A stretch of 64,000 nucleotides of DNA from Myxococcales bacterium (lineage in GTDB: Bacteria; Myxococcota_A; Bradymonadia; UBA7976; UBA1532): the NCBI GenBank assembly GCA_020633435.1, contig JACKDP010000002.1, forward strand, positions 567,788 through 631,787, read 5' to 3'. The translations under genes and the position numbers were made by a program. The notes under the pieces were generated by a model. That model made no database searches. It had not been told where the DNA came from and saw only the letters and a program-made list of their open reading frames with translations. Shown here in pieces: positions 26,959 through 57,820 of the stretch (position 1 is its first letter; each line of letters opens with the position of its first letter).

Positions 26959-27053
26959 TCGGGGACCCCCCGAAAATCTGGTGGTGCCCGCGTCGCCGAG
27001 GCGCCGGGAGGATGACCGCCGGCCGGTCCTCCCTCCCCGGCCTCGGAGGTCTC

Positions 27054-29945
27054 ATGCGCTCGACCCTGCGCACCGCGCTCCTCGCCCTCGCCCTGGCCCC
27101 CACCGGCGCGAGCGCCCTCAGCCTGCAGGACTGCGTCCCCAGCCAGGCGTCCCCCGGCGCCATGCTGCCCATCGGCGCGCCCGGCGACGACGGCTACCTG
27201 TACCGGAGCGTGCTCTACCAGTTCCTCCAGACCACCCAGCTCGCCGACGTCAGCTACCCGGCGACGTGGTGGCCGGCCGTCACGGCGTTCTCCCAGAACA
27301 CCGCCCTGCTGCAGATGCCGCCGATCGCCTACGGCGTCTACACCTACGTCTTCGGCAGCGGCACGCTGAACGCCGCCCAGCAGCCCGTGCCGGGCAACGG
27401 CTACGAGGGCATCTGCAAGGCCGACTGGAGCCAGGCAGCGCCGACCCTGACCGCCACCGACCGCCTGCAGATCGAGCAGCTCCTGCTCATGACCGTCCAG
27501 TACGGCATCGTGCCCGACCTCACCTACCGCTGCCTCTTCGAGCCCGCCATCTTCGAGCTCTCGTACATCGAGGACGTCGCCCGCTGCGAGGCCCGCGTGC
27601 CGGCGTTCCACGACCACTCGACGCTGACGTGGCTCATGCAGTGGGACTACCCCGGCAACATCTTCCGGCTCGCGCCGGACGTGACGCTGCGCCGCTTCGC
27701 CACCCACCTGGCCTTGCAGCTCATCCAGCTCGACTGGGCCGTCTGGCAGGGCGGGCCGGCGTCAGCGCCCATGACGGTGCCCTACCCGCCCCAGGGCACG
27801 CCCCCGGCCAACGGGGAGGTCTTCCCCCACCCGGGCCCCCTGAACGCCAACCACTACCCGTCCGGGGTGGGCAACCTCGCGGGGGACGACCTGGCGGACC
27901 GGCTGGTGCTGCTCGCCCGCATCTACGCGTGGGCCGACGAGGCCCAGCCAGCCTGGCTGACGCCCGGCCTGAAGGCGGCGTTCCAGGAGGGCCTCGCGCG
28001 CAACGGCGAGCGCCTGGCCCGCATGAACGTGCTGGGCATGCACACAAACCGGGCCTTCCAGGCCGTCCACGCCCTGGCCGCCATCAAGGCGGCGCTGGTG
28101 GGAACGTCCTGGCAGAACGCCGCGGTCGGGTGGCACAACCGGACGCTGGAGCGCTTCCTCGACGTCTTCCGGGAGGCCGGCTACTACGGCGACGATGATG
28201 GCCTCTACGACGCGGCCTACAACCGCTACGGCCTGCTGCACACCGTCCGGGCGCTGGTGCAGGACCCCGGCACGATCCTCGCCAACGTCGTCCGCCTGAC
28301 CGATCAGGCCCGCAAGCTGGGCAACCTGGAGGCGCACCTGACGTTCACCGACCGGACGGGCATCCACACCTCGCCCTCCGGCATGAGCGTGCGGACGGGC
28401 GCCGGGGTGGCGGGCCGCAGCCGCCGCGTCGTCGCGAGCGCCGACTTCGGCGTCAACCAGCTCGCCGCCCACGCCTTCGGGGTGCCCTACGCCTACGCCC
28501 GCGCCCGCGACCTGTCCCACGTCGGGCCCTACGACGCGGGCGGCTTCGCCGGCGCGGTGGACGCGCGCACGAACAACCCGGCCTACGAGGCCGACCTGGC
28601 CTGCTACGTCCACCCGAACTTCGACGCCTTCCCCTGGCTGCCCCAGCTCACCCCGCCGCCGCTGCCCCAGCAGACGGAGGACGGCCTGAGCGGCTGGTAC
28701 CGCCAGTACGGCACCCCGGTGCACGCGGTGGAGCAGCTCGCCCCGGGCTCCCTGCAGGCCTACGCCGACGCCCTCGACCAGGACCCGGGCGCGCCCCTGC
28801 TGCCCTTCGAGGAGGCGGGGCCGCATCTCGCTGATTTCGATGGGGAATTCGTCTTCGCCAAGTTCGGCGGGGCGGGCGTGTACTTCGAAGGCGCGCCGGG
28901 CGGGCCGAGCTTCGATGCCTACCAGCCGGCCAGCGCGCGCGACTACGCGGCGGTGGTGCACCTGGGCCCCGTCTCGCCGGGCCACAACGTCCCCCCCTGC
29001 GGCGAGAGCAACCCTCATGGCTACGGCGGCGGGCAGCTCGCGACGCTCTGGGCGCCCGGCGGCGGCCTGTTCTCGATGACGCGCCGCAAGGGCTACAACA
29101 ACGACTGCGAGTCCTGGCAGCACGGCGAGTGGACGGCCATCGCCCTGCACCACGTGGCGCTGCTCGACACCGCCGAGCGCGTCGCCACCAGCGCCCGCAT
29201 CCCCCTGCCCGCCACCTTCACCGCGTTCACGGCGGGCGCCCTGCCGTCCGGCGCCGACCGCGACTTCCTGGACGACGGCGCCGCCGGCATCGCGGGCCTC
29301 GCGACGCTGCCGGCGGATCAGGCCGACCACGCCTTCCTGGAGGCCGCCGGGCCGTTCTCGAGCCAGCGCTACCCCACCGACGGCAGCCTCGTGGAGACCG
29401 CGGCCACCCCCATCGACTACCGGCGGCGCTTCGTCCTCGGCGAGGGCGGCGTGACGGTGCGCACCGAGCTGCTGACCCAGACGGTCATCATGCCCACGGA
29501 GCGCCAGGGCCAGCCGGTGAAGCAGAAGGAGTACCCGCAGCCCATGCCGAAGGTCTTCCAGGCCTGGGAGATCTTGCCCCTCGGGACGGCGGAGGGGCCG
29601 ACGGCGACCGGGCACGTCGCCACCGACATCACCCTCATCACCGCCCAGGGCGCCGAGGTGGGCGTGCCGGGCCCCTCGCCGTCCTCGGAGGCCGTGGCCT
29701 ACGCCGACATCAAGTACGTCGTCGTCACGCGCGAGGCCGGGACGCTGACCATCGAGTTCGCGAGCCCCCAGACCATCGCCTTCTCGGAGGACTACACCGC
29801 CTTCGGGGGCGACACCCCGTCGCGCAACCTGATGGTCGACCTGACCCCGAGCCGCCTCTCCAGCGCCAACGTCCTGGCGGCGGCGCCCCAGGCCGAGGTG
29901 CTGCAGCCCGTCGTGGTGGAGTACACCCTGCGCGCCTCGCTGTAG
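27054..29945 (+). CDS. large secreted hypothetical protein (963 aa)
   Basis: The ATG at 27054 has GGAGG 5 nt upstream. MRSTLRTALLALALAPTGASALSLQDC signal peptide. Consistent coding composition, no recognised catalytic motif. The track ORF from 26814 is 5' read-through. Confidence 0.55.
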   Translation: MRSTLRTALLALALAPTGASALSLQDCVPSQASPGAMLPIGAPGDDGYLYRSVLYQFLQTTQLADVSYPATWWPAVTAFSQNTALLQMPPIAYGVYTYVFGSGTLNAAQQPVPGNGYEGICKADWSQAAPTLTATDRLQIEQLLLMTVQYGIVPDLTYRCLFEPAIFELSYIEDVARCEARVPAFHDHSTLTWLMQWDYPGNIFRLAPDVTLRRFATHLALQLIQLDWAVWQGGPASAPMTVPYPPQGTPPANGEVFPHPGPLNANHYPSGVGNLAGDDLADRLVLLARIYAWADEAQPAWLTPGLKAAFQEGLARNGERLARMNVLGMHTNRAFQAVHALAAIKAALVGTSWQNAAVGWHNRTLERFLDVFREAGYYGDDDGLYDAAYNRYGLLHTVRALVQDPGTILANVVRLTDQARKLGNLEAHLTFTDRTGIHTSPSGMSVRTGAGVAGRSRRVVASADFGVNQLAAHAFGVPYAYARARDLSHVGPYDAGGFAGAVDARTNNPAYEADLACYVHPNFDAFPWLPQLTPPPLPQQTEDGLSGWYRQYGTPVHAVEQLAPGSLQAYADALDQDPGAPLLPFEEAGPHLADFDGEFVFAKFGGAGVYFEGAPGGPSFDAYQPASARDYAAVVHLGPVSPGHNVPPCGESNPHGYGGGQLATLWAPGGGLFSMTRRKGYNNDCESWQHGEWTAIALHHVALLDTAERVATSARIPLPATFTAFTAGALPSGADRDFLDDGAAGIAGLATLPADQADHAFLEAAGPFSSQRYPTDGSLVETAATPIDYRRRFVLGEGGVTVRTELLTQTVIMPTERQGQPVKQKEYPQPMPKVFQAWEILPLGTAEGPTATGHVATDITLITAQGAEVGVPGPSPSSEAVAYADIKYVVVTREAGTLTIEFASPQTIAFSEDYTAFGGDTPSRNLMVDLTPSRLSSANVLAAAPQAEVLQPVVVEYTLRASL

Positions 29946-33770: not shown

Positions 33771-35320
33771 CTACCTGGGCGGCCCGTCGCCCCGCAGCAG
33801 CGCCAGCAGCAGGGCCGCCGTCTCGCGGTCCGCGAGGAGCGCCCGGCAGCGCGCGCGCAGCTCGGCCTCGTCCTCGATCTCTTCGCCCGTGACCCGGCCG
33901 ACGTGGCGCGCGACCCGCAGCAGATCGGCCAGGGGCAGCGACTCGGTGGCGTCGACGCGCACATGCCGCGACGTCCACGCGGCCGCGGGCGGGGCCTCGG
34001 GCGTCCGCTCCGGCAGCCGCGCGCCCCAGCGGCCCGCGACCCGCGGCCGCACCCGCAGGGGCCGCCCCTCCCGGGTGGTCGAGGCGTCGACGGGCATCCA
34101 GCGCGGCCCCTGGGCCGTCCCCAGCAGCGCCATCGCCCACAGATGATCCGGCTCGTCCACCTGCCCCCGGTCGAAGATCCACCCCGTCGCCACCGCCGCC
34201 GGCACGCCCGCGCGGCGCAGCAGCTCCACGGCCAGCACGTTGAGCTCGTAGCAGACGCCGGCGCCCAGGTGCCGGGCGTCCCGGCCGGCGTGCAGCGCCG
34301 CGAGCTGGGCGTTCTGCCGCCCGCGGCTCAGGCGCCGGAGCCAGCCGGCCAGGCGCGGATCCTCGAAGCGCGCCGGGTCATAGCGGTAGCTGGCGCGGAT
34401 GAAGTCGCGGATGGCGATGGCCCGCTCCAGGGGCGCGATGCCGCTGACGCGATCCACCAGCGCGTGGCACTCGGCGGGCAGCTCGTTGTCGGGGGCCGTC
34501 GGGCGCAGGAGCGTGGCCGGGGCGTCGACGACGTAGGCCGGGCCGAACTCCGGGGCCTGGCCGAGGGCGATCTCGCAGCGCACGTCGGCGTCGCGCGAGG
34601 CGCTGAGGAGCGGCAGGCCGCCCGGGGTGCGGATGACGAGCGCCGCGGGCTGCGCGTCGGCGGAGAGCAGGCGGCCGTGGAGCGGCACCGGCAGGACGGA
34701 CTCGCCCGCGGGCAGCCGGCCCGCCAGGCTCACCCGGTGGCGCGACTCCCCCGCCGCGGCCGACCAGGCCGGATCGATGGCCTCGGCCGTCCAGTGCTGC
34801 GTGCGCGGATCGAAGCGGTCGGCGATGAGCGCCGGGGCGTAGAGCCAGGGCGACGGGAGCTGGCGCGGGGCCGTAGCGAACCCATACGCCGCCGGGCGAC
34901 CCCGGTCCTCCAGCCAGGCCCGCCCGTCGTCGAGCTGCGGGCCCACGTCGCCGCGGGGGCGGAAGAAGCGGTCGTGGCTGGCCTGGAAGGGCCGGCTCGC
35001 GTCGCCCCCCGTGGCGGGGCTGCGGCGCGAAAGGCCGCCGGGCGCGACGGGCGTGGGGGCTGGCGGCGGCGTGGGCTGCGCGGGCGCCTCCGGCGGCGGC
35101 GCCTCGCTCCGGCTCTGGCGGCGCCTCCTCCCCGCCCAGCCACTTGCGGAACCGCGCCAGCAGCCAGGGGCCGAGACGGCCTCCTCGGCGGCCGCCGGGG
35201 TCGCTGGCTCTGGCGGGGCGGCGGCGGGGCCGCGGGGGCGTGGGCGCGGGGTCGGGGCGCTGCCGCCGCGGGGCCGGGCGCGGGCGCTGGGCGCGGCGCG
35301 TCGAGCAGCAGCCGCATGGC
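33771..35320 (-). CDS. C-terminal transglutaminase-like cysteine-protease-fold segment of the giant protein; out of frame with the upstream body
   Basis: From the track ORF 33771..39656, only the last ~500 codons look real: ...RDARHLGAGVCYELNVLAVELLRRAGVPAAVATGWIF...DHLWAMAL is a transglutaminase-core (G.C....L.....LR..G.PAR...G) signature. The upstream part of that ORF is G/R/P nonsense antisense-frame material. Confidence 0.5.
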
Positions 35321-38300
35321 CGGCAGGCGCACGCAGGCCAGCAGATCGGCCACCAGGGCCACCTGCTCCGGCGTGGCCTTGCCGCTGACGAGGCGGTCCC
35401 GGCAGAGGGCGTCTGCGACGGTCGCCAGGTCCGGATCGCCGCGCACGACCAGCGTGTCGGCCACGACGGCGGCCTCGACCGGCCAGCGGACGGCCTCCCC
35501 GAGCAGCCGCCCCTGGCGCTCGATGCGGTCGGCCAGGTGCGCCGTCGGCACGCGCCCGAAGTCGGCCCTCCAGCGGGCCGGCCAGCGGCGCAGCGCGTCG
35601 CCGAGGCCCCAGAGGGCGGCCACGCTCGCGCCCAGCTCGCCGGCCAGCGGCGCGATGCCGGTGGCGGTCGGCGCCCCCCGATCCTCGAACAACGCCCCCG
35701 CCCGGGGCACGCCGGCCTGGGCCAGGACCGCCTGCAGGGCGTCGGGATCGCTGTCCCCCGCGTGCACCGCCAGCAGATCCACGCCCTCGGCGCGCGCGGC
35801 GTGGACCAGGCTCATCGGCGCCGGCCACACCAGCCGCGGATCCGACGTCCAGCAGAGCGCCAGGCGCCCGCCGGCGTCGGCCACCACCACACCGCGGGCC
35901 GGCGCGGCCTCGCCCGCTCGCACCCAGGCGCGGGGGATGACGTCCGCCAGCTCGGGCTCGGGGCCGAGCAGCGCGTCGCCCTGGGCCATGAACGCCGTCG
36001 CCAGCTCGTCGAGCACGTCGGCGTAGTGGCGTGGCGCCGGGCCGGGGGGGATGCGCAGGGCCGCCACCAGCCGCGGCAGCGTCCGCCCCGCGCTGAAGCC
36101 GCCCCGCCGGCGCCCCAGCTCCCCCGGGGGCAGGTCGCGGATGAGCGTGCGGGCCGGGTGGCGGCTGTCGTCGTCGGCCAGGAACCAGGGCCCGTCGCCC
36201 AGGCCGTCCCGCGCCGCCTCGGCCGTCAGCCGGCGCGCCTCGATCTGATCCTCCAGCCAGCGCAGCACCACCTCGTCCAGGGCGCCGCCCGGCGGCACGC
36301 GGCCGAGGACGTCGGCCAGGCGGGCGTCGTCGGCGCCCCGGCAGCCCAGCCGGCGCCACACCGCCTCGGGCACGTCGGCCCGCAGCGCCACGGCCGGGTA
36401 GAGGCCGCCCGCGTCGGCCCCCAGCAGCGCCTGCACCGCGGGCGTGGGCCAGTAGAGGCGCGACGGTGAGCGCAGCCCGCCCTGGGCGTCGGGCAGCCAC
36501 GTCCGATCCCGCAGGCTGAGCGCCTCGATCAGCCGGGGGGCCTCGACGGCCCGGTCCAGCACGTAGCGCGCGCAGGCGAGCCGCTGCTCGCGGCCCTCCC
36601 CGGGGGGGTGGTCCAGCAGGGCCGTGAGGGCGGCGTCGTCCAGGTCGGCGTCGGCCCCGGCGCCGCGGATCAGCGCCCGCGTGGCCGCGTCGTAGCGCGG
36701 GTGCAGGATGGGGGGCGGCGCCGGCAGGAAGCCCGCCAGCGTGGTGGCCAGGTCGTCCCGGGCCGGCACCAGCACGGCCTTCGGGCGGTGGAAGGCCCCG
36801 TCGAGGGCCTGCACCCGGATGCGCCGGCCCAGCTTGAACCGCTGCGCCTGCTCGGCGGCGTGGGCCGGGCGGTCCGCCTCGACCCGCAGCGTCCGGGCCA
36901 GGAACGCCAGCAGCGTGGCCTGCCGCTCCCCGTCCCCGTCCGCCATCTGCAGGCCCTCCAGCACATGGTCCACCAGGGTGTGCAGCCGCGTTTTCTCCAA
37001 AGAATACAGGTCCTTGAAGAGGGCGCGCAGCGCCTCGGGCAGCTCGGCGGTCGGGTTCCACGAGAGGTCCAGATCGGGCAGGCCAGGCTCGAAGAGCAGC
37101 GCGTTGGCGGGGCGCAGCAGCCCGTCGGGGGTGGGCAGCACGCAGGCGCGCCCCAGGGCCGCGCGGGCCGCCTCGTCGGCGCCGATGACCTCGGCCCGGG
37201 CGAGCACGGCGCGGTACAAGGCGTGCCGGGCCTCGGGATCCGCGAAGGTGGGGTGCGTCTCCGCGGGCACCGGGGACGTCGCGTGCTCGGCCAGGGCCTC
37301 CAGCCAGCTGCGCACCGGCAGGCGCGGCGCGAGGGCCGGCGCGACGCCCCGGGCCACGGCGGCCCACGTCGGGTCGGCCAGCCGCACCACCAGCGGGGTG
37401 CGCGCCACGGTGGCCAGCTCGTCGAACGTCGCCTCGAAGCGGGCGCCACGGCACAGGCAGCCCTGGGCGTCCACGGTCAGCGGCAGGCGCGCTGGATCGA
37501 GGCCGGGCTCCTCCATGGCGACGACGAGCAGGCGCCCCACCTGGCCGGGCGTCTGCAGCCACGGCGGCTGCTCGGCCAGGGGCTCCCCGGGCCGGGCCTC
37601 CTCGGCCAGCTTCTCCAGCAGCAGCGACACCGGCGAGCGGAACCGCAGCACGCTGGCCAGGGCGTCGGCGTCGGCCTCCGCCCGGTGCTCGAGCAGCCCC
37701 GCCGGCGGCACCTCCACCACGCCCAGGAGCGCGGATCCTCGCAGCGCGGACGGCCGCACGAGGGCGGACGCCCGGGCGTGGCCGCCATCCTGGTGGGGCC
37801 ACACCGCCAGGTCGGCGAGGGCGGAATCCCAGGCGTCGACGAGGTGCACCAGCGTGTCGCGGACGGTGTCGAGCGCCACCGGGCGGGCGTCGGCCGTGAC
37901 CACCAGCGCCAGATCCGCCGGCCCCGCCGGCCGCAGCCGCAGCGCCTCCAGCAGCGGGGCCAGCGCGGCCTCCGCCGAGGGCTCCAGGCGCCGCCGCCCG
38001 GTGTGCTCCAGCGCGGCGGCCAGGGCGGCCGGGACGCGGTGCGCCCCGCCCCGATCCGGGGCGTCCCAGTGCCCGAGGGGGGCACGCTCGCCATCCGTCG
38101 TCGGGTACAGCGGCAGCGTCGTCAGCGGCGCGAGGCGCGACGGCGGCAGGCTCTGCCCGGCGGCGGCGAGGGCCTCGAAGAGCGCGTCGATGGGCACCTC
38201 GGCCACGTCGTCGGCCTCGGCGCTCGCCAGATCCTGCACCATGCGGCCCAGATCCGGCGTCCGCAGCGCCTCCTCCAGGCCCAGGGCCGTGGCGGCGCGG

Positions 38301-41236
38301 ATGGCCTCGGCGCCCGCGAGGGGCCAGGCCGCCAGCGCCCGGTACACGGCCGCCACGCGCGGATCGGCGGCCGGCGGTCGCAGGGCCGCGAGGGGCCGCA
38401 GCGCCCCGTCGCGGGCGGGCCAGATGGGGGCCTCGGCCAGCGCCTGCCGGGTCGGGCCGCTGATGCGCTCCGCGCGCTCCGCCACGAACGCGAGGGCCGC
38501 GCCGACGTCGCCGATGGCCTGGCCCGCCAGCTCGGGGGGCGGGCGCCCGGCCAGGTGCCGCGCCAGGTGGTCGGCCGTGAGCGCCACGATGGGCAGGCGC
38601 CCCACATGCGGCGCGCCCCGCGCCAGATCGCGGCGCAGCCAGGCCACCCCGGGCAGCAGGCCCCGCAGGCCATCTTCGGCGGGCACGAGGGCGCGGTCCG
38701 GCCCGAGGAGCGGGCGACGCTCGCCGGTGTCCGTGGGGAACACGGCGGCCGCCGCCAGCCGGTCGAGCTGGCGGCCCGACAGCTCGCCCTGGGTCTCGGC
38801 CAGGACGGCGTGCAGGGCGTCGAGCGCCGCGTCGTCGATGGGCAGGCCGTCGGCCGCGTAGAGCGCCAGCACCGCCGGCAGGTCGAGGACGGTCACCCCG
38901 AGGCGGCGCAGCAGATCCGCCTGGCTGGCCTGGATGCCGGCGTCGACGAGGGGCGGCCGCACCTCCAGGCCCCGCAGCCAGCCGCCGAGGGGGCCGGGCG
39001 CCGGCAGGAAGACGGCCTGGGGCCCCCGCACCGACCGCAGCCGCCCCCGCTCGTCGGGCACCAGCGGGGCGTCCTTGACCTGCTCGAGCTGGGCCGCGGG
39101 CCGCCCCGCCAGCCACCGCAGCACCCGACCAGCGCCGGCGCGGCTGACGATGGCCGCGGCGTCGGCCGCCAGATCGGCCAGCACGTCCTCGGCCGTGAGG
39201 CTGCCGACGCGCAGGCGCGCCCACAGGGGCCCCAGGTGCAGATCGGCGTCCAGTTCCGGGGCCAGCAGGGCCCGCCCCGGCGCGGCCAGCGCCCGCAACT
39301 CGGCGTCCGCCCTCAGGATTTCGGACGGCGCATGCAGCACGCCCGCGGCGTCGGGCAGCACCGCCAGCCCCCGCAGGGCGTCCACGGGCCAGCGCTCCCG
39401 GGCCAGGAACCGCAGGATGACGGGCATCGCGCCGGGCAGCCAGGCGGCCCCCTGGGCGGCGGTGAGGAGTGCGTCGAGGTCGGCGGGCGCCAGCGCCACC
39501 GCCCCCAGGTCCCGCGCCACCTCGGCCAGGCCCCCGGGCAGCGGCGCCACGGGGCGTCGCCCGGGCGCGGGCGCCAGCACGGCGGCGAGCGCGGCGTCGG
39601 GGACGAGCAGGGCGCCCGTCGGCGTGACCGGCTGGCCCTGGGCGTCCTGCAGCCACGGCACCTGGCGGACGGCCTCGCGAAACCCGGTCGCGACGTGCTC
39701 GAACGGCGCGGTGACGGCCTGCCGCGGCGCGACGGCCATCAGCGGGCGGGCGTCCAGGCCGGCCGCGACGCGGCGCTGGACGAGGCCGCCCAGCAGCGCC
39801 CCGGCCCGCGCCAGCGCGGCGTGGTTGGGGGCGTCGTCGCCGTCGATGCGCTCCCGATCCACGGGCACGGCGAAGCGGGCGTGGATCAAGAAGTCGTGGC
39901 CGCTCGGCTGCCGCGTCGGCAGGAACGCGAAGACGGAGGGCTCCCCGGCGGGCCAGCGCGCGGGCTGGCCTGCCGCGTCCAGGGCCACGGCCACCAGCAC
40001 CTCGTCCGCCGGGGCCCGGGGGCGCTCGGCGTGGTGGGCGGCCACCAGGAACCCCCGCCGCACCACCGGCCCGCCCTGGTCGTCGACGAGCTCCACGCGG
40101 TCGTCGCCGGTGCCCGGGCGCCGGGTCAGGCGGCGACGACCCGCGGCGTCCTCGATCTCGATGGTCTGCACGCTGCGCAGGGTGAGCAGGACGTGGGCCG
40201 GCAGCGCCCGGGCGCGGCGGGCGAGCGCCGCCACCCCCCGCGCCTCGTCGGCCGGATCGCGCAGCGGCAGGACGAGCGTCGTGCCCACGCCGCCGGGGCG
40301 GCGCTCCAGGGGCCGGGGCAGCGACACGTCGGCGATCTCGAAGGCGAAGACGTCGGAGTAGACGCGGGGCCGCTCGCAGACGGCGTAGACGGACTTGAAC
40401 CCCACGCCGAACAGGCCGATGTGGCCGGCCACCTTCGTGGTCTGGCCGATGGAGAGGACCCCCACCACGTCGCGCACGTCGAAGGGGGCCCCGTCGTGCC
40501 GGATCTCGACGGCGTCATCGGTGAACGTGACCCGCCAGGACCGGGCCCCGGCGTCGTCGGCGTTCTGCAGCAGCTCGGCCAGAAAGTGTCCGGGTTCCGT
40601 ATAGATACGCTGGGACAGCAGCTCCTCGGCCCGGGCCAGCGACAGGGAGCGGGGCTGGCTCGCGAGGACGGCGAGGACGCGGTCCCCGAAGGCCGCCCGG
40701 CGGGCGCGGAGGGCGTCGTCATCGGCCAGCGCGGCGATCCGGGCCCCGGGCAGCAGCAGCAGATCCTGGTCCGTCCCCTCCCCGGCGGCGACGCGCGCGC
40801 CGGCGGCGGCCTGGAGGTCGGCCAGGGTGGCGGGGGCGTGGCGCCCGAGCCAGCGCAGGATGACGCAGCTCTCGGCCAGGCGCTCGACGGGCTGGGCCAG
40901 GAGCGTGCGGGCCAGGAGCGCGGCGAGGGCGGCCTGGGCCTCGGCGTCGCCGGCCTGGCTGCCCGGGCCGAGGGCGCGCGCCAGCCCGGCGGCCGGGAGC
41001 GTGGCGAGGGCGTCGGCCAGGGCGCCTCGCACCGTCGGCTCCAGCACCGCCCCCGAGGCCAGCAGGCCCGCCATCAGGCGCGCGAAGGGCTCGAAGTCCG
41101 GGCCCTGGGCCGTCAGCGCCGTGAGCGTGGCGAGGCCCTGACCCGCGGCCACGGCGGCGTCGATGATCGCCGCCTGCGCGGCGAAGGGGGCCCGGGCGGC
41201 GGCGGCCCAGGCCTCGGCGGTCGGTGCGTGGGCCAT
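35321..41236 (-). CDS. giant (~1,970-aa in this frame) protein with N-terminal sacsin/NOV-type GHKL (Hsp90-like) ATPase domain and a long Ala/Leu/Arg-rich helical region; probably continuous with the transglutaminase-like segment
   Basis: Start taken at ATG 41236 (MAHAPTAEAW...). SQRIYTEPGHFLAELLQNADDAGARSWRVTF...IRHDGAPFDVRDVVGVLSIGQTTK...GLFGVGFKSVYAV is the Bergerat-fold N-box/G-box pattern seen in sacsin SRR/NOV-type GHKL ATPases. Coding-like composition runs to a Pro-rich linker at ~35300-35400, where the frame degenerates. The track ORF continues to 34730 as Arg-rich nonsense. Confidence 0.6.
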
Positions 41237-41324
41237 GGCGGAGGGAGTCGCACGGGCCGGGCCCCGGCCGCAAGATCGCGCGGTTCCTTGACGCCCACGC
41301 CCGACCACCGCACCCTCCCACGCC

Positions 41325-42020
41325 ATGGCCGAGACCCGCACCGTCCTCCCCACGCCGCACCCGAGGCTCGTCCGCGACGCCGCCGGGCAGCCCCTCCACC
41401 CGCCCGCCGACTGGAGCCTCCTGCCCCCTGGCGACGCCGCCCTCACCCGCCGCGTGCGGGCCGAGGGCGACCACTGGATCATGGAGGAGCGCCGGGGCCG
41501 CAAGGTCTTCTCCCGGGGCACCTGGGCGCCGACCGACCGCATCGAGCGCATCACCCGGATGCTGGAGCGCGAGCGCGCCCAGCCCGCCCATGGCGAGCGG
41601 CTGGCCCGGGATCGCGCCCGCCGCGACAAGGCCCAGGCCGCCTACGTCGAGGAGTTCCGCCGCGAGGTCCTGGCCTTCCTGGCCTTCGCCCCGCGGCACG
41701 CCGCCGTGGGGCTCGAGCTGGCGACGCGCATCGCCGAGCACGCGACCCCCGTGGGCAGTGGCACGGTGGCGCGCACGGCCCGCATCCCCGTGGCCGAGCG
41801 CGCCGAGGCCGCCGTCATCGCCTGGATGCGCCACCAGACCACGGCCTACGACCGCATGGTCATCCCCCGCATCAAGGGCGAGCGGCGCGAGACACGGCGG
41901 CGGCTGGCCGAGCGCTCGCGGCAGGTGCTGCAGCGCTACCGCGTCGACGCCGACCCGCCCGCCGACTGCCCCCTGCAGGCCGCCCTGGCCCGCCCGGCGC
42001 CCCCGCCCGACCCCGCCTGA
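41325..42020 (+). CDS. conserved hypothetical protein (231 aa), divergent from the giant gene
   Basis: Globular composition (WIMEERRGRKVFSRGTWAPTDRIERITRMLERE...AVIAWMRHQTTAYDRMVIPRIKGERRE). No family named with confidence. Confidence 0.5.
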   Translation: MAETRTVLPTPHPRLVRDAAGQPLHPPADWSLLPPGDAALTRRVRAEGDHWIMEERRGRKVFSRGTWAPTDRIERITRMLERERAQPAHGERLARDRARRDKAQAAYVEEFRREVLAFLAFAPRHAAVGLELATRIAEHATPVGSGTVARTARIPVAERAEAAVIAWMRHQTTAYDRMVIPRIKGERRETRRRLAERSRQVLQRYRVDADPPADCPLQAALARPAPPPDPA

Positions 42021-50847: not shown

Positions 50848-51387
50848 GTGAGCGAAGAAGACGCGGAAGTCCGCATGCGGGGCTGGGTGGAGCGCGCGGT
50901 GGTCGGGCTGGATCTCTGCCCGTTCGCCCGCCGGGTGGTGCGCGCGGAGGGGCTGCGCTACGTCACGGTGCCGACCGCCGACGTCGCGACCATCCTGGCC
51001 GCGGTGCATGAGGAGCTGATGGAGCTCGCCCTGCCGGCGCCCGGCTCGACGGTGGAGACGACGCTGGTGCTGGTGCCCGGGCTGGCGGGGTTCGAGCGGT
51101 TCCTGGCGGTGCTGGCGCGGGTGGAGGCGCTGCTGCCCCGCCTCGAGCTGCGGGGCGTGATCCAGGTGGCCCACTTCCACCCCGACTACCGCTTCGCCGG
51201 GGTGCCGGCCGACGCGCCCGGCAACGCCACGAACCAGGCCCCGGTGCCCGCCTTCCACCTGCTGCGCGAGGCGGACGTCGCGGCCGCCGTCGCGGCCCAC
51301 CCCGATCCCGAGGGCATCCCCCGCCGCAACATCGCGCGGTTGGAGGCCCTGGACGCCGAGGCCCGCCGCCGCCTGCGCGACGGCTGA
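50848..51387 (+). CDS. DUF1415-like protein
   Basis: GWVERAVVGLDLCPFARRVVRAEGLRYV shows the conserved CPFA motif I associate with DUF1415. GTG start with GGAGGGG upstream; the alternative start is ATG 50875. Confidence 0.5.
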   Translation: MSEEDAEVRMRGWVERAVVGLDLCPFARRVVRAEGLRYVTVPTADVATILAAVHEELMELALPAPGSTVETTLVLVPGLAGFERFLAVLARVEALLPRLELRGVIQVAHFHPDYRFAGVPADAPGNATNQAPVPAFHLLREADVAAAVAAHPDPEGIPRRNIARLEALDAEARRRLRDG

Positions 51388-51389
51388 TC

Positions 51390-52154
51390 CTAGAGGTCGA
51401 AGTCCGTCCAGATGGGCGCGTGATCACTGGGCTTTTCGCCGCGGCGCTCGTCCAGGTCGATGGCCACGTCGGCCACCGTCCCGGCCAGGCTGGCCGTCGC
51501 CCAGATCTGGTCGATGCGCAGGCCGTCGTCCTTCTGGAAGCCGAGGTTGCGGTAGTCCCACCAGGTGTGGTGGCCGTCGCCCTGCTCCTTGAGCCGGAAG
51601 GTGTCGACGAGGCCCCAGTCGGTGACGCGCTGGAGGGCGGCGCGGGCCTCGGGCCGGCAGAGCACCGAGTCGGCCCAGCGCTCGATGTTGCGCACGTCGC
51701 GATCCTCGGGGGCCACGTTGAAGTCGCCGCAGAGCGCCACCGGCATGCCCGGATCGAGCCGCCGGTCCAGCCAGTCGCGCAGCTTCGCGTACCACTGCAG
51801 CTTGTAGACCCACTTGTCGCTGTCCGGCTCGCCGCCGTTGGGGACGTAGGCCGAGATCACCCGCACCCCGTCCACCACCCCGGCGATGAGGCGCGCCTGG
51901 GGGTCGTCGTCATCCAGCGTGCGCCACACGTCCTGAATGGGCGAGCGCGCCACGATGGCCACGCCGTTGTACGTCTTCTGGCCCAGGATCTCGGCGTAGT
52001 AGCCCAGCTCGCCGATCTCGTCCCAGGGGAAGCGATCCCCCTCGTTCTTGAGCTCCTGCAAGCAGACGACGTCGGGCTCGCGGGACTCCAGCCAGTTCAG
52101 GAACCGGTCGGTCCGCGCGACGATGGAGTTGACGTTCCAGCTCGCGATCCTCAT
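51390..52154 (-). CDS. xthA: exodeoxyribonuclease III (AP endonuclease)
   Basis: MRIASWNVNS, CLQELK, GDFNVAP, SDHAPIWTDF: the canonical EEP-fold Xth motifs. Confidence 0.85.
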   Translation of the reverse strand: MRIASWNVNSIVARTDRFLNWLESREPDVVCLQELKNEGDRFPWDEIGELGYYAEILGQKTYNGVAIVARSPIQDVWRTLDDDDPQARLIAGVVDGVRVISAYVPNGGEPDSDKWVYKLQWYAKLRDWLDRRLDPGMPVALCGDFNVAPEDRDVRNIERWADSVLCRPEARAALQRVTDWGLVDTFRLKEQGDGHHTWWDYRNLGFQKDDGLRIDQIWATASLAGTVADVAIDLDERRGEKPSDHAPIWTDFDL

Positions 52155-52155
52155 C

Positions 52156-53403
52156 TCAACCCCTTGGTCTCGTTCGTAGATCACTGAGAGAAGCCTGCGC
52201 CTTGGGCCGGAAGCCCTCCAGCCGATCGAGGACGCGGCGCGCGCTCATGACGCCCTTGTAGACGTAGAGCTGGCCGGGCAGGTCGTCCTCCAGCGCCGCC
52301 TCGCTGACCCGCAGGCGCTCGGTCACGGCGAAGAGGACGTTCTCGCGCAGGCCGGCGCGCACCAGATCGACGCGCTTCCAGACGGCGTCGCGGCTCCAGA
52401 ACCCCAGCACCTCGAGGTAGGCCCGGGTGCCGTCGGGGTGGCTGAACACCAGGTCGGGCACGCAGAGGCCCACGCCCGGCAACGCCAGCAGCCGCGTCGA
52501 GCGCCGCACGCGCCAGTCGGTCTCCAGGGCGCCGAACCGCTGCACCAGGTCGGCGACGTCGTCGGGCAGCGGCAGCTCGGCGCCGGGGCCGCCGTCGCGC
52601 TCCCCCTTGAGGAGGAAGCGCACCCGCTCGGGCGGCTTGCCGAACAGCAGATCCGCCTCCAGGGCCCAGCGCGCGCAGGCCCGGATGGGCTCCAGCATCA
52701 TCGCCAGCCGCAGGCCGTACTTCCGCGTCGCCGAGAAGAGGCTCTGGGGGCCGTCGAGGGTGACGCGGTAGCCGCCGTCCCGGGCCTCGATGGTGTAGAG
52801 AAGCCGGTGGAACTTCAGGGAACGAAAGAGGTTTCGCCAGATGGCGGCGTCCTCTTCCTCGATGTCCACGACCACGCGCACGGCCAGCAGCAGGGCGGCC
52901 CGCTCCTGCTCGCGCTCGTACAGCGCCAGCAAGGCCTCGGGCGTCGTGGCCTCGAACTCGACCAGCAGGTGGGCGTCCTTCAGGTCGGCGAAGAGGGCGC
53001 CCTCCAGCGCCTTCACCTCCAGGCCCAGGGCCGCCGCGGCGTCGGCGATCACCGCGCCCCGATCGAAGGCCTGCAGGTGGTCGAGGGCCCGCCGGGCCGC
53101 CGTCGCGCGGGTGAAGACCTCGGCCCGCAGCGCCACCGGGGGCTGCCCCACGTCCATCTCGAAGGTGCAGCGGTCCGTCACGAGCTTCTGCAGCCCGGCG
53201 AAGACGCGCTGATCGGCGTGGCTCACGGGGACGTCGCCGCAGGCCGCCTTGAAGACCTCCCGGCTCTCGCCCACGCTGTTGGCGGCCGCCTGCAGCAGGC
53301 CCTCGGCGGCCTCCAGCAGCCGCGGCCGCGCCGCCGCCGGGATGGGCCGGACCTCGACGACGTCCTTCGTGCGCTTCCAGCGCACCAGATCAGCGGTAAG
53401 CAC
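52156..53403 (-). CDS. DUF790 / Bax1-like nuclease (partner of the XPB-type helicase)
   Basis: A 415-aa protein whose start overlaps the helicase stop by 14 nt and whose stop is 1 nt from the xthA start. The family assignment rests on size, composition and the obligatory pairing with the XPB-like helicase. The conserved acidic nuclease region is ...VVVDIEEEDAA.... Confidence 0.6.
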   Translation of the reverse strand: MLTADLVRWKRTKDVVEVRPIPAAARPRLLEAAEGLLQAAANSVGESREVFKAACGDVPVSHADQRVFAGLQKLVTDRCTFEMDVGQPPVALRAEVFTRATAARRALDHLQAFDRGAVIADAAAALGLEVKALEGALFADLKDAHLLVEFEATTPEALLALYEREQERAALLLAVRVVVDIEEEDAAIWRNLFRSLKFHRLLYTIEARDGGYRVTLDGPQSLFSATRKYGLRLAMMLEPIRACARWALEADLLFGKPPERVRFLLKGERDGGPGAELPLPDDVADLVQRFGALETDWRVRRSTRLLALPGVGLCVPDLVFSHPDGTRAYLEVLGFWSRDAVWKRVDLVRAGLRENVLFAVTERLRVSEAALEDDLPGQLYVYKGVMSARRVLDRLEGFRPKAQASLSDLRTRPRG

Positions 53404-54751
53404 TGTGCTCCCGGCGCCGCTGGCTGGTGTACGTCTCGGCCGTCTCCTCGGCGACGAGCTCGTAGAGGATGGCCTGCTTGTCGCCCTGCTTGCGCAGGAT
53501 GCGGCCGAGGCGCTGGACGTGCTCGCGCACCGAGCCGGAGCCCGAGATGACGATGGCGACGTTGGCCGACGGCACGTCGACGCCCTCGTTGAGCACCTTG
53601 GACGTCGCGACGGCGCCGTAGCGGCCCTCGGCGAAGCCGGCCAGGATCTCGCTGCGCTCCACCACCGGCGTCTGGTGGGTGATGACGGGGATGAGGAAGC
53701 GCCGGGCGACCTGGTAGGCCGTGTTGTTGTTCTGGGTGAAGAGCAGCACGCGATCCTGGCGGTGGCGGTGCAGCAGGTGCTCGACGAAGCGCAGCTTCGA
53801 GGGGGCGGCCGAGGCCAGGGCCTTCTGCCGCTGCCAGGCGAGGAGCGCGCGGCGGCCCTCCGCCGATCGGGCGGCGCGCTGCAGGAACTGCTGCCAGGCC
53901 CCCTGCTGGGAGAACCGGATGCCTTGCGAGGCCACGAAGGCCCGGTAGATGCCGCGCTCGTGCTCGTAGGCCTGCCGCTCGGCGTCCGTCAGCGGCACCG
54001 TGAGCGTCTCCGTCGTGTACTCGGCCAGGTAGTCGCCCGCCAGCTCCACCACGTCGCGCTGGTAGACGGTGGGGCCGATGAGGCGCTCCAGCTCGACGTG
54101 GCGGCCGTCCGCGCGCTCGGGGGTGGCCGAGAGGCCCAGCCGGTACGGGGCGAGGCACATCTCGGCGCCGAGGGCGTACGACTCGCCCGGCAGGTGGTGG
54201 CACTCGTCGAACACCACGAAACCAAAGCGGTTTCCCAGGTGCTCCATCTGCGCCCAGGCGGAGTCGTAGGTGATGACGGTGAGGGGCTGGACGTCGTGGC
54301 TGCCGCCGCCGACCACGCCGACGGGCTGCGCGAAGGCGCTGCCGAGCAGGTCGTACCACTGCCGCACCAGGTCGAGCGTCGGGGCGACGACCAGCGTCGA
54401 TCGGCGGATGGCGTCGATGGCCAGCATGGCCACCCAGCTCTTGCCGGCCCCGGTGGGCAGGGCCACCACCCCGCGGCCGCGGTTCTTCTGCCAGGCAGCC
54501 AGGGCCTCGGTCTGGAAGGGCCGCGGGGGCCGCTGGATGGCCAGGCCGGCGTCCAGCTCGGTGTACCGGCGGGCCTCGTCCGTCCAGGCGAGCTTGCGGC
54601 GCACGAGCCCCATCACCACCTCGGCGTAGGCCTGGGCGGGGGTGCGCCAGCAGCGCGTCCGATCGTCGAAGCGCGCCACCTCGGGCAGGATGGCCGGGTC
54701 CTCGACGTCGTGGACTTCGAGGGTGCCGGCGTTGAAGACGAGCCGGGTCAT
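53390..54751 (-). CDS. XPB/ERCC3-like SF2 DNA helicase (DEAD/DEAH box)
   Basis: Motif I ALPTGAGKSWVA, motif II VVFDECHH, motif III GLSATP, motif VI QRLGRILR. The N-terminal damage-recognition-like region resembles XPB. Confidence 0.75.
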   Translation of the reverse strand: MTRLVFNAGTLEVHDVEDPAILPEVARFDDRTRCWRTPAQAYAEVVMGLVRRKLAWTDEARRYTELDAGLAIQRPPRPFQTEALAAWQKNRGRGVVALPTGAGKSWVAMLAIDAIRRSTLVVAPTLDLVRQWYDLLGSAFAQPVGVVGGGSHDVQPLTVITYDSAWAQMEHLGNRFGFVVFDECHHLPGESYALGAEMCLAPYRLGLSATPERADGRHVELERLIGPTVYQRDVVELAGDYLAEYTTETLTVPLTDAERQAYEHERGIYRAFVASQGIRFSQQGAWQQFLQRAARSAEGRRALLAWQRQKALASAAPSKLRFVEHLLHRHRQDRVLLFTQNNNTAYQVARRFLIPVITHQTPVVERSEILAGFAEGRYGAVATSKVLNEGVDVPSANVAIVISGSGSVREHVQRLGRILRKQGDKQAILYELVAEETAETYTSQRRREHSAYR

Positions 54752-54891
54752 CCCGGGCTTTCTACCTTATCCGGCGCGCGCCCGCGAGGGCGCTTCGGCC
54801 CATGCGGCCGCCCCCCGGGCGAAAACCGCTGGCCACCCTCCGCGTCGTTGGGCATCATGCGCGACCTTGGCCACGTCTCTGGGGGACGCCC

Positions 54892-55872
54892 GTGATCCGA
54901 CGCGCCGCGCTGCTGGCGCTGCTCGCCGCCTCGTCGGCGGGGGCGACGACGCCGGACCGGGGGTTCGCCCCCTACGGGGTCATCGACGGCTACGTCGAGG
55001 CCCTGCGCGTGATCATGGTGACGGTCCGCGACAGCCTGTCGATGGAGACGCTCATCCGTCACCACCCGCCGGCGGCCGTGGGGCGCGTCCAGGGGCGGCT
55101 GCTCTTCGGCGTCCAGATGCAGGACAGCGAGGGCGTCTGGCTGCGCGATCGCGACGCGGCCTGGGCGGTGCCCGAGACCATCGACGCCCTGGTGGCGGCC
55201 GCCGCGGAGGTCCGCCGCCTCCACCCCGGCGGCATGGAGCTCTCCATCGGCGACATCTCGCGCCGCACGGGGGGCCGCTTCCCGCCCCACCGCACCCACC
55301 AGTCCGGGCGCGACGCCGACATGCGCTACTACCTGGTGGACGTGCAGCCCGGCGACCGCGAGCACCACTACACCGGCGTCGACAACGTCGATCTGCCCCG
55401 CCAGTGGACGTTCATCAAGACGCTCATCGACCGCGGTCAGGCCGAGGTCATCTACATGGACTACCGGCACCAGGAGCGGCTGTACAAGTACGCCCGCGCC
55501 CAGGGCATGACCCCCGAGCAGCTCACCCCGATCTTCTCGTACCCGCGGGGCAAGCGCGTCATGTCGGCCGTGATCCAGCACATGAAGAACCACTTCAACC
55601 ACCTGCATGTGCGGGTGTTCGCGCCGAAGTCCCAGCTCTTCGGCCTGCTGTGGACGCCGGCCGAGGCCTTCGCCCTGCAGCAGCAGGTCGACCTGGCGAC
55701 GCTCGGGCACTTCGACTACGTGATCCGGGACGGCGAGACCCTGGGCAAGATCGCCCGCAACCACAAGGTGGAGCTGGCCGACCTGATGGCCTGGAACGGC
55801 CTCGGCCCGCGCTCGAAGCTGCGCCCTGGCATGGTCCTCAAGATCCGCCAGAAAATGCCCAGCCGGCCGTAG
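54892..55872 (+). CDS. penicillin-insensitive murein endopeptidase (MepA-like) with C-terminal LysM domain
   Basis: Signal peptide from the GTG at 54892 (MIRRAALLALLAASSAGA). HQSGRDADMRY...HFNHLHVRVF matches the MepA zinc-ligand pattern. The C-terminus DYVIRDGETLGKIARNHKVELADLMAWNGL is LysM. Confidence 0.65.
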   Translation: MIRRAALLALLAASSAGATTPDRGFAPYGVIDGYVEALRVIMVTVRDSLSMETLIRHHPPAAVGRVQGRLLFGVQMQDSEGVWLRDRDAAWAVPETIDALVAAAAEVRRLHPGGMELSIGDISRRTGGRFPPHRTHQSGRDADMRYYLVDVQPGDREHHYTGVDNVDLPRQWTFIKTLIDRGQAEVIYMDYRHQERLYKYARAQGMTPEQLTPIFSYPRGKRVMSAVIQHMKNHFNHLHVRVFAPKSQLFGLLWTPAEAFALQQQVDLATLGHFDYVIRDGETLGKIARNHKVELADLMAWNGLGPRSKLRPGMVLKIRQKMPSRP

Positions 55873-55935: not shown

Positions 55936-56009
55936 CAAACATTTGTCTAGCCTGGTCAAGACATTCGACTCGCATTCGAAGAACGCCGGTTCAAATCCGG
56001 CATGTACGA
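55936..56009 (+). tRNA. tRNA-like element (74 nt, anticodon CGC, Ala-type) with imperfect acceptor stem; possible pseudo-tRNA or att-site remnant
   Basis: Manual fold: D-stem gtct/agac with an agcctGGtca loop, a 5-bp anticodon stem ttcga/tcgaa with loop cTCGCat (U33, A37), a 4-nt variable loop, and a perfect T-arm gccgg-TTCAAAT-ccggc. The acceptor caaacat/atgtacg has two adjacent mismatches (2:71, 3:70). It is AT-rich relative to the genome and lacks G3:U70. Confidence 0.35.
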
Positions 56010-56065: not shown

Positions 56066-57820
56066 ATGGACATCCTGGTCATCAACTGCGGCAGCTCGAG
56101 CCTGAAGGTCGACGTCGTGGACGCGGCCACCGGCGCGCGCCGCCACCAGGCCCGCGCTGAGCGCCTGGAGGCCGGCGAGCTGGCCACGGCCCTCGCGCGC
56201 GTCCTCGGCGGTCTGCCCCTCGAGGGCGTCGCCGCCGTCGGCCACCGCGTCGTCCATGGCGGCGAGCGCTTCACGCACCCGACGCGCATCGACGACGACG
56301 TGGAGGCCGCCATCGGCGCGCTGGTGCCCCTGGCGCCGCTGCACAACCCCGCGAATCTCCAGGGGATCCAGACGGCTCGCCGCCTGCTCCCGGGCGTGCC
56401 CCATGTGGCCGTCTTCGACACCGCGTTCCACCACACGCTGCCCACCCGCGCCCGCACGTATGCCCTGCCGGCCGACGTCGCGGCCCGCCACGGGGTGCGC
56501 CGCTACGGCTTCCACGGCCAGAGCCACCGGTTCGTGGCCGCCCGCGCCGCCGCCCACCTCGGCGAGGACGTCGCGAGCCTGCGGCTGATCACCTGCCACC
56601 TGGGCAACGGGGCCTCGGTCTGCGCCGTCGAGAACGGCCGGTCCGTCGACACCAGCATGGGCATGACGCCCCTGGAGGGCCTGGTGATGGGCACCCGGGC
56701 GGGCGATCTGGACGCCGGCCTGCTGCTCACCCTGCTGCGGGAGGAGGGCCTGGACGCCGACGGCCTGGACCGCCTGCTCAACCGCGAGAGCGGGCTCAAG
56801 GGGCTGTCGGGCGTCGGCAACGACATGCGCGACATCGAGGAGCGGGCGGCCGACGGCGACGAGGCGTGCCGCCTGGCCCTCCACGTCTTCTGCCACCGCC
56901 TGCGCAAGTACATCGGGGCCTACGCCGCGGTCATGGGCGGCGTGGACGCCATCGTCTTCACAGCCGGCATCGGCGAGAACAGCGCCCTGGTGCGCCACCG
57001 CGCGGCCCAGCGCCTCCAGTACCTCGGCGCCCGGCTCGACGAGGACCGAAACCGCGACGCCCGGGTGTCGGCGACGTCCCCCGTGGCCGAGATCTCCGAG
57101 CCTGGCAGCCGCGTGAAGCTGCTGGTGGTGGCCACCGACGAGGCCCACGCCATCGCCGCCGACGTGCGGGATCTGGTGCAGGCCCAGGACGCCGTCGAGG
57201 GCCAGCTCGACATCCCCATCGCCGTCTCGGCCCGCCACATCCACCTGTCCCCCGAGGCGGTGGAGGTGCTCTTCGGCCCCGGCCACACCCTCACGCCGCT
57301 CAAGGAGCTCAGCCAGCCGGGGCAGTTCGCCTGCGCCGAGCAGCTCACGGTGATCGGCCCCCGCCGCCAGATCGAGGGGGTGCGCGTGCTGGGCCCCGCC
57401 CGGGGCAAGTGCCAGGTCGAGATCTCGCGCACCGACGAGTTCTTCCTGGGCATCGACGCCCCGGTCCGGCGCTCCGGCGACGTGGCCGCCTCCCCCGGGA
57501 TCACCCTCGAGGGGCCCGCTGGCCGCCTCACGCTCACCGAGGGCGTCATCTGCGCCTGGCGGCACATCCACATGACCCCGGAGGACGCGGCGCGCTTCGG
57601 CGTGGCCGACCGGGACATCGTGGAGGTGGCCATCGACAGCCAGGATCGCGACCTGATCTTCGGGGACGTGATGGTGCGCGTCTCGCCCGCCTACCGGCTG
57701 GAGATGCACATCGACACCGACGAGGCCAACGCGGCCGAGATCGGCCGGGACTTCAAGGGCGTGCTGGTGGACACGGGGCGCACGGCCCACCTGCGCCGCC
57801 GCGAGCCCCGCGCCACCTGA
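56066..57820 (+). CDS. ackA: acetate kinase fused to a C-terminal PduL-type phosphotransacylase domain
   Basis: The N-terminal ~395 aa carry MDILVINCGSSSLK, HRVVHGG, VFDTAFH, GFHGQSH, ITCHLGNGASV and TAGIGENS, all acetate-kinase motifs. The C-terminal ~190 aa carry two RHIH motifs (VSARHIHLSPE...; ICAWRHIHMTPED) and DTDEANA, typical of PduL. Confidence 0.8.
   Translation: MDILVINCGSSSLKVDVVDAATGARRHQARAERLEAGELATALARVLGGLPLEGVAAVGHRVVHGGERFTHPTRIDDDVEAAIGALVPLAPLHNPANLQGIQTARRLLPGVPHVAVFDTAFHHTLPTRARTYALPADVAARHGVRRYGFHGQSHRFVAARAAAHLGEDVASLRLITCHLGNGASVCAVENGRSVDTSMGMTPLEGLVMGTRAGDLDAGLLLTLLREEGLDADGLDRLLNRESGLKGLSGVGNDMRDIEERAADGDEACRLALHVFCHRLRKYIGAYAAVMGGVDAIVFTAGIGENSALVRHRAAQRLQYLGARLDEDRNRDARVSATSPVAEISEPGSRVKLLVVATDEAHAIAADVRDLVQAQDAVEGQLDIPIAVSARHIHLSPEAVEVLFGPGHTLTPLKELSQPGQFACAEQLTVIGPRRQIEGVRVLGPARGKCQVEISRTDEFFLGIDAPVRRSGDVAASPGITLEGPAGRLTLTEGVICAWRHIHMTPEDAARFGVADRDIVEVAIDSQDRDLIFGDVMVRVSPAYRLEMHIDTDEANAAEIGRDFKGVLVDTGRTAHLRRREPRAT

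Follow-up and report, generated by a model that had tools for sequence, protein, structure and literature searches.

The 64,000 nucleotide (nt) stretch of DNA analysed here, referred to as the window, derives from a Myxococcales bacterium (assembly GCA_020633435.1, contig JACKDP010000002.1, positions 567,788-631,787 of the forward strand) and carries on its minus strand, at positions 51390-54751, a unit of three genes encoding an XPB-like helicase, a DUF790/Bax1 nuclease and an exonuclease III (ExoIII). In our reading, to which we give a probability of roughly 0.72, this region is the bacterial orthologue of the archaeal XPB-Bax1 machine, joined at the 3' end of the operon, in this lineage only, by the housekeeping base excision repair (BER) gene xthA. 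A preliminary description of this DNA had proposed an archaeal repair pair in a bacterial chromosome. That part of the proposal stands with respect to the identities of XPB and Bax1 and the coupling of their genes, whereas the further suggestions of a three-gene module and of a defence role found no support.

The XPB helicase and the Bax1 nuclease

The first gene (53390..54751, minus strand, ATG start) encodes a protein of 453 amino acids (aa) that matches the Pfam families XPB_DRD (PF18458), ResIII, Helicase_C and ERCC3_RAD25_C. The XPB_DRD match spans the whole profile (residues 4-60 against positions 1-57 of 57; 44.8 bits, cut-off 26). Among proteins of solved structure the best relatives are AfXPB (E 8e-106, with residues 18-448 colinear) and StXPB2 (E 1e-101), whereas eukaryotic XPB is matched only at ~1e-27 and only over HD2. 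The region corresponding to the thumb-like (ThM) insertion between HD1 and HD2 aligns without gaps to both archaeal proteins (query residues 222-323 with AfXPB and 179-280 with StXPB2), consistent with the presence of the thumb region in the window helicase. The Walker A sequence PTGAGKS, FDECHH, the SAT of motif III, R213/D215 and the QRLGRILR of motif VI are kept in 55-59 of 59 relatives. At the position of the RED motif the window sequence reads SATPE-R213-A214-D215; the Arg is found in 59/59 and the Asp in 57/59 sequences, with A, T, Q or S as the middle residue across the clade. The protein appears to be an archaeal-type XPB helicase/translocase of superfamily 2 (SF2), with a damage-recognition domain (DRD) at its N-terminus, HD1, an R-A-D motif, a thumb region and HD2. 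The earlier identification of an XPB-like helicase is thus borne out by the XPB_DRD profile and by the AfXPB and StXPB2 matches.

The second gene (52156..53403, minus strand, GTG start at 53403) encodes a protein of 415 aa that matches PF05626 over almost its full length (E 1.6e-79, 268 bits with a cut-off of 28.8; protein residues 1-394 against profile positions 1-386 of 387). It shows sequence matches to the solved Bax1 chains 6p4f_B, 8gy8_A and 6p66_B, and is identical to a DUF790 protein annotated from a Myxococcales metagenome-assembled genome (P0001). An AlphaFold (AF2) model, for which 35 homologues served as input, has a predicted local distance difference test score (pLDDT) of 90.9, and the top eight Protein Data Bank hits of this model in Foldseek are all archaeal Bax1 structures (E 4e-25 to 4e-20, template modelling scores 0.53-0.68). 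The model contains a beta-hairpin and two tri-helix bundles in the N-terminal domain, a Cas2-like central beta-sheet domain and a nuclease domain, as described for AfBax1. Profile, structural and model matches agree in identifying the second protein, as the preliminary description had it, as DUF790/Bax1, with a modelled four-domain fold of the PD-(D/E)XK nuclease type and a short C-terminal tail.

Four residues of the window Bax1, D140, the acidic residue 282, D317 and E331, are invariant in 81/81 sequences. D317 and E331 align to the PD...E-x-x-GFW motif of StBax1, and residue 282 can be equated by position and conservation with E275 of AfBax1, in which the triad consists of E275, D305 and E318. 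D140 belongs to an F-x-D-L motif that lies at the XPB interface in archaea. Since the catalytic and helicase residues are conserved, both XPB and Bax1 are predicted to be catalytically active. The archaeal Bax1 equivalogs NF053695 and NF053694, for which the cut-off is 500 bits, are matched at only 89.8 and 83.9 bits, respectively, and the window protein represents a distinct bacterial subfamily.

The reading frames of the two genes overlap by 14 nt (53390..53403, minus strand; GTGCTTACCGCTGA), with the TGA stop of the helicase (53392-53390) lying inside the Bax1 gene, an arrangement expected of a translational-coupling junction. For comparison, a scan of one genome per species gave 365 confirmed DUF790 loci, of which the best 80 were kept; all 80 are from metagenome-assembled genomes and represent Myxococcota, Vicinamibacterales (Acidobacteriota), Poribacteria, Bradymonadia and one Planctomycetota bin. 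XPB is located directly upstream of Bax1 in 78 of the 80 loci; one of the two exceptions (L003) is truncated where its contig ends. In 69 of these 78, from several phyla, the two genes share the same 14-nt overlap, nearly unchanged in sequence (NTGCTTACCGCTGA). The junction is constrained in two reading frames and predates the split of these lineages. A conserved overlap of this kind speaks for coupled translation and for synthesis of the two proteins in equal amounts, in keeping with the archaeal heterodimer, and the sequence geometry argues for a translationally coupled XPB-Bax1 bicistron.

When every open reading frame (ORF) of at least 90 aa in the 80 loci was clustered all against all, only XPB and Bax1 were conserved across loci; no conserved third partner emerged from this clustering, other families occurring only in small groups of close relatives. 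Clusters 1, 3 and 4 of the flanking ORFs proved to be shadow ORFs of XPB and Bax1 and were discarded. Identity of XPB to the window protein is 59-72% in all full-length loci except L001 (94%), and because this range spans four phyla the helicase can be regarded as slowly evolving. The Vicinamibacterales sequences, 11 in total, form one monophyletic group in the Bax1 tree and have conserved local synteny, which together point to vertical inheritance. The DUF790 family is nevertheless uncommon overall, with 1958 clusters at 50% identity (E <=1e-3), or 407 at E <=1e-30, among 1.84 billion representatives.

A separate observation concerns the second locus in which XPB does not directly precede Bax1 (L056:4524-6462). 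Here a solitary Bax1 gene is preceded by a 230 aa Lys/Ala-rich ORF that ends 8 nt upstream, and no helicase is found in the 5 kb upstream, which would fit either an orphan Bax1 or a rearrangement of the cassette.

The exonuclease III gene and its linkage to the pair

The third gene, xthA (51390..52154, minus strand, 254 aa, ATG start), was called as an ORF of 51390-52184, although ATG 52154 rather than the upstream GTG 52184 is the true start, as shown by the TIGR00195 alignment, in which residue 1 falls on profile position 1. Its product matches Exo_endo_phos in Pfam. It also matches TIGR00195 (249.6 bits against a trusted cut-off of 182.55) and TIGR00633 (234.5 bits against 99.05) at full length, in agreement with its earlier identification. 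It is a canonical exodeoxyribonuclease III, an apurinic/apyrimidinic (AP) endonuclease and 3'-5' exonuclease, without distinguishing features.

The TGA stop of Bax1 (52158-52156) is followed by a single base, G (52155), and then by the xthA ATG. A Shine-Dalgarno-like AAGGGG (52160..52165, minus strand) for xthA is located inside the non-conserved 3' tail of Bax1; the last ~15 codons of Bax1, which hold this site, are non-conserved and modelled with low confidence (residues 403-408 have pLDDT <50), and most homologues end near residue 397-409. On the 5' side the unit is divergent from a LysM/M74 peptidase gene, and on the 3' side xthA is convergent with a DUF1415 gene (50848-51387, plus strand), the two stop codons being separated by 2 nt. 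As the upstream gene is divergent and the downstream gene convergent, the minus-strand unit comprises exactly three genes, and the overlap and spacing proposed in the preliminary description were verified from the coordinates. The packing is so tight that co-transcription of XPB, Bax1 and xthA is likely in the window genome. Values of GC at the first, second and third codon positions in the three frames are 0.72/0.47/0.97, 0.77/0.46/0.94 and 0.68/0.42/0.97; third-position values of 0.94-0.97 combined with second-position values of 0.42-0.47 constitute the pattern of real genes in a genome of 73% GC. The long ORFs that overlap these genes, whether on the opposite strand or in a different frame, display codon-position GC patterns of shadow ORFs and were rejected.

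Convergence with DUF1415 has a consequence of its own. The stops of xthA and DUF1415 are 2 nt apart (51387-51392) and no terminator-like structure is present, so that the two transcripts must overlap or end inside the opposing gene.

Linkage of xthA to the pair is rare. A homologue occurs within the 6-kb flanks in only 4 of the 80 loci (L001, L004, L005 and L014), all belonging to the same clade of the Bax1 tree as the window, and only in L001, where the whole neighbourhood is syntenic and XPB is 94% identical, is xthA adjacent to Bax1 as in the window. In L004 and L005 xthA lies 1.1 kb downstream, beyond a gene (L004:7637-8302 in the former) whose product has an N-terminus that resembles, by eye, a lipoprotein signal. 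In L014 it lies 2 kb downstream, beyond a long Cys-rich repeat protein (CNGxDDDCDGxxDEG repeats; L014:7300-9155). The genes between Bax1 and xthA in these three loci are unrelated and putatively encode secreted proteins. Cu-binding_MopE (PF11617) matched two of 112 flanking proteins, neither of which is named in the output. Four further members of the clade (L020, L042, L006 and L065) are without xthA nearby.

The preliminary description suggested that the three genes form a dedicated damage-processing module. In such a pathway XPB would open the DNA, Bax1 would incise it and ExoIII would be required, either for trimming or cleaning of the 3' end or for widening the nick to a gap. In its favour, each of the three enzymes works on DNA, the 1-nt spacing from stop to start and the separate Shine-Dalgarno sequence of xthA make co-transcription likely, L001 has the same Bax1-xthA junction, and xthA is still found within ~2 kb downstream on the same strand in L004, L005 and L014. 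We nevertheless consider such a pathway unlikely, as xthA is missing from the 6-kb flanks of 76 of the 80 loci, including the four clade members mentioned above, unrelated genes are inserted after Bax1 where xthA is kept, the xthA product has no special features, and the conserved neighbour clusters consist of XPB and Bax1 only. It also seems doubtful, somewhat more so, that ExoIII has been recruited in this lineage into a UvrABC-independent three-enzyme excision system, in which opening and incision at the junction would be followed by resection or cleaning of the 3' end. If true, such recruitment would represent a bacterial analogue of eukaryotic-type nucleotide excision repair incision coupled directly to BER end-processing.

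Since the pair is found in 78/80 loci and its overlap in 69/78, but xthA in only 4/80, we regard the XPB-Bax1 bicistron as the conserved unit and xthA as its passenger. The simplest reading of these sequences is that a local synteny has collapsed into an operon fusion, rather than that a three-component system has been conserved; the 3' tail of Bax1 that contains the xthA ribosome-binding site would seem to have arisen through loss of the DNA in between. Most likely xthA is an ordinary base excision repair gene that has become a lineage-specific passenger of the operon.

Promoter region, flanking genes and other readings of the locus

A -10-like hexamer, TAGAAA (54759..54764, minus strand), is located 7 nt upstream of the XPB ATG, and an intergenic alignment with L001, L004, L005 and L014 shows conservation only in a GGTAGAA/GCTACAA block, 7-10 nt before the ATG. 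Across 59 loci, TANNN[AT] hexamers peak 6-11 nt before the XPB start (16 in this bin, against ~1.3 per bin elsewhere) and are often preceded by TG-N in relatives, whereas a scan for consensus sigma-70 promoters found no -35/-10 pair. These sequences suggest a promoter of the -10-only or extended -10 type and an mRNA with no leader or almost none. The single terminator-like site returned by the scan is on the wrong strand, inside xthA, and was rejected. The preliminary description had proposed a check for LexA or other boxes upstream of 54751. Eight published types of LexA box were scanned over 54700-54950 and none occurred at <=1 mismatch, although the LexA motif of the uncultured host lineage may differ. 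One of the eight was the Myxococcus xanthus box, which is said to go back to Campoy and colleagues in 2003. The alignment with the four syntenic relatives likewise contains no conserved palindrome.

The apparently constitutive promoter of the -10-only type and the lack of an SOS box would also suit a function of the pair on DNA structures other than lesions, such as stalled forks, R-loops or transcription bubbles, in place of excision repair, and the archaeal knock-outs without clear damage sensitivity, discussed below, point the same way. The DRD is present, however, and the sequence data fit this reading and the repair reading alike; we give it a very slender chance of being correct.

A role for XPB-Bax1 in defence was also raised in the preliminary description; the pair would then recognise and cut foreign phage or plasmid DNA. 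The combination of a helicase with a PD-(D/E)XK nuclease is frequent among defence systems, the DUF790 family is rare, Kosinski et al. (2005) left a "selfish character" possible (PMC1189080), and the helicase core resembles both PbeA (E 2.8e-48) and the dnd restriction helicase TIGR04095. The PbeA match, however, covers profile positions 250-635 of 672 and reflects the shared SF2 core only, and the TIGR04095 score of 124 bits is far below the cut-off of 600. Bax1 has neither a PADLOC nor a PHROG match and xthA has no PADLOC hit, which counts against such a role. Pfam matches of the 112 flanking proteins fell into 112 different families, with no family in more than five proteins, so that nothing recurs across loci, and the flanks of the 80 loci are not enriched in defence genes; the families read are of the housekeeping kind, for example gyrB, acetyl-CoA carboxylase and FTHFS. 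The only PADLOC families matched by two flanking proteins each were PD-T4-6, mad6, C3a189, which is described as a kinase, and MkoA. Two flanking proteins have Pfam protein-kinase domains, the PADLOC output not being tied to particular proteins. Searches of the three window proteins (PADLOC and PHROGs) and of the flanking proteins (PADLOC and Pfam) thus returned only generic helicase and PD-T4-6/kinase-type matches.

Among the window genes scanned, none was recognisable as encoding an integrase, a transposase, a restriction enzyme or any other defence function, and the literature searched contains no paper that ties the XPB-Bax1 pair to phage defence. The monophyly and synteny of the Vicinamibacterales sequences indicate vertical inheritance, and the slow evolution of the helicase is unlike that of typical defence genes. 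It is very unlikely, in our judgement, that the pair serves in anti-phage or anti-plasmid defence; its signature appears to be that of a vertically inherited chromosomal function and not of a defence island. An origin of the region from a mobile element was also considered and rejected, as GC content is uniform, at ~73% across the region, an Rfam-confirmed tRNA-Ala is situated between housekeeping genes and the window genes scanned include no integrase or transposase.

The neighbours of the unit are housekeeping or metabolic: the window contains pheT, a sensor kinase, an oxidoreductase, a hydrolase, the DUF1415 and M74 peptidase genes, a gene for an AckA-PduL fusion and the tRNA-Ala (55936-56009), which is the only Rfam-confirmed tRNA in the window. 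Two further ARAGORN candidates, tRNA-Pro (1696-1785) and tRNA-Val (29342-29426), fall below the Rfam threshold, lie inside ORFs of high third-position GC (1180-2730 and 26754-29945, respectively) and are probably false positives. The AckA-PduL gene (56066-57820, plus strand) encodes a protein of 584 aa in which acetate kinase (PF00871) is fused to a phosphotransacylase of the PduL type (PF06130), so that a single polypeptide would carry out the two steps that link acyl-CoA and the free acid; L001 has the same fusion. Elsewhere in the window, an ORF of 2303 aa (34730-41641, minus strand) occupies a stretch of ~80% GC, above the 73% of the remaining window, and its only Pfam match is to a sacsin-like domain (PF25794, residues 347-431).

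Proposed mechanism and relation to known systems

The archaeal XPB-Bax1 systems used for reference are those of Archaeoglobus fulgidus (6P66) and Sulfurisphaera tokodaii (6P4F/6P4O/6P4W), together with Bax1 of Pyrococcus furiosus (8GY8). Structures of the archaeal complex have been analysed in detail (PMC7293015, PMC7672443), and its mechanism is also treated in PMC13024598. By analogy with these systems, the window XPB would bind a distorted duplex, bubble or fork by means of its DRD, R-x-D motif and thumb, and would then spend ATP to translocate and open the DNA. The N-terminal domain of Bax1 would dock on the thumb and HD2 of XPB, and its PD-(D/E)XK domain, containing acidic residue 282, D317 and E331, would nick one strand at a junction between single-stranded DNA and duplex. 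Transcription would probably start from the -10-only promoter just upstream of the XPB ATG, and the overlapping frames would provide a stoichiometric XPB-Bax1 heterodimer by translational coupling. ExoIII has a ribosome-binding site of its own and a start codon 1 nt after the stop of Bax1. It most likely serves its usual function at AP sites and at 3' ends that are blocked, and would be co-expressed with the pair without being required for its mechanism.

Several points weigh against the interpretation of the region as a bacterial XPB-Bax1 machine with xthA as a passenger. The C-terminal dimerisation domain of archaeal Bax1 is mostly absent from the window protein, in which ~35 residues are left, and for this reason regulation of the nuclease may differ from that in archaea. 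The central Glu of the RED motif is replaced in the window (R-A-D) and throughout the clade, although StXPB2 itself has R-D-D at this position, so that this residue is not universal. Retention of the 1-nt xthA junction in L001 could still reflect selection for co-expression. The genome may also encode UvrABC, and the literature searched yielded no experimental work on a bacterial XPB-Bax1 pair. In archaea, deletion of xpb or bax1 in Sulfolobus islandicus had no observed phenotype, and deletion of xpb in Thermococcus kodakarensis conferred only marginal sensitivity to damage (PMC4471258); since these deletions have little or no phenotype, the role in repair is an inference even there.

Gene order in the window is the same as in archaea, and the helicase is full-length and colinear with AfXPB, including the DRD, thumb region and HD2. 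Bax1 resembles its archaeal counterparts in fold along its length (Foldseek E ~1e-25), including the VRR-Nuc-like nuclease domain, and shares the acidic triad and the F-x-D-L motif with D140. In contrast, identity to the solved archaeal Bax1 proteins is only ~17-20%, the score against the NCBIfam archaeal Bax1 equivalogs is far below the cut-off (~90 bits against 500), the host is bacterial and mesophilic with a high GC content, and the window system differs in its reduced C-terminal domain, R-A-D motif, fixed 14-nt overlap and appended xthA.

Stand-alone XPB of the Mycobacterium tuberculosis type (NF045503) is likewise an SF2 helicase of the XPB family in a bacterium, but the window helicase is ~95 aa shorter than this 548-position profile and matches it in two pieces at 200 bits, missing the cut-off of 610; it scores 358 bits against solved archaeal XPB, although the two scores are not directly comparable. 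A 2012 study of M. tuberculosis XPB stated that no complex of the XPB-Bax1 type had so far been identified in bacteria. The exonuclease does not differ from E. coli-type XthA as a protein, and only its position at the end of an XPB-Bax1 operon is unusual.

The association of DUF790 with XPB helicases, bacterial members included, has been known since 2005. Kosinski et al. described COG3372/DUF790 as a predicted PD-(D/E)XK nuclease usually found beside an SF2 helicase of the SSL2 type (COG1061), in Archaea and Cyanobacteria, and predicted a role in repair or recombination (PMC1189080). The window pair is exactly this COG3372-COG1061 association, but that study included neither Myxococcota, Acidobacteriota nor Poribacteria, and described neither the conserved overlap junction nor the linkage to xthA.

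For annotation, a "DUF790 family protein" beside a "DEAD/DEAH helicase" in these phyla can now be named as Bax1 and XPB, while tight packing with xthA should not be counted as a conserved functional module. The bacterial literature found treats XPB as a stand-alone helicase, and even in archaea, where knock-outs have little or no phenotype, the in-vivo role of XPB-Bax1 is putative. The translationally coupled XPB-Bax1 cassette is kept by vertical inheritance in Myxococcota, Vicinamibacterales and Poribacteria, its catalytic residues being invariant, and these mesophilic bacterial lineages offer a setting for tests of its function, provided that a carrier can be found that grows in culture.

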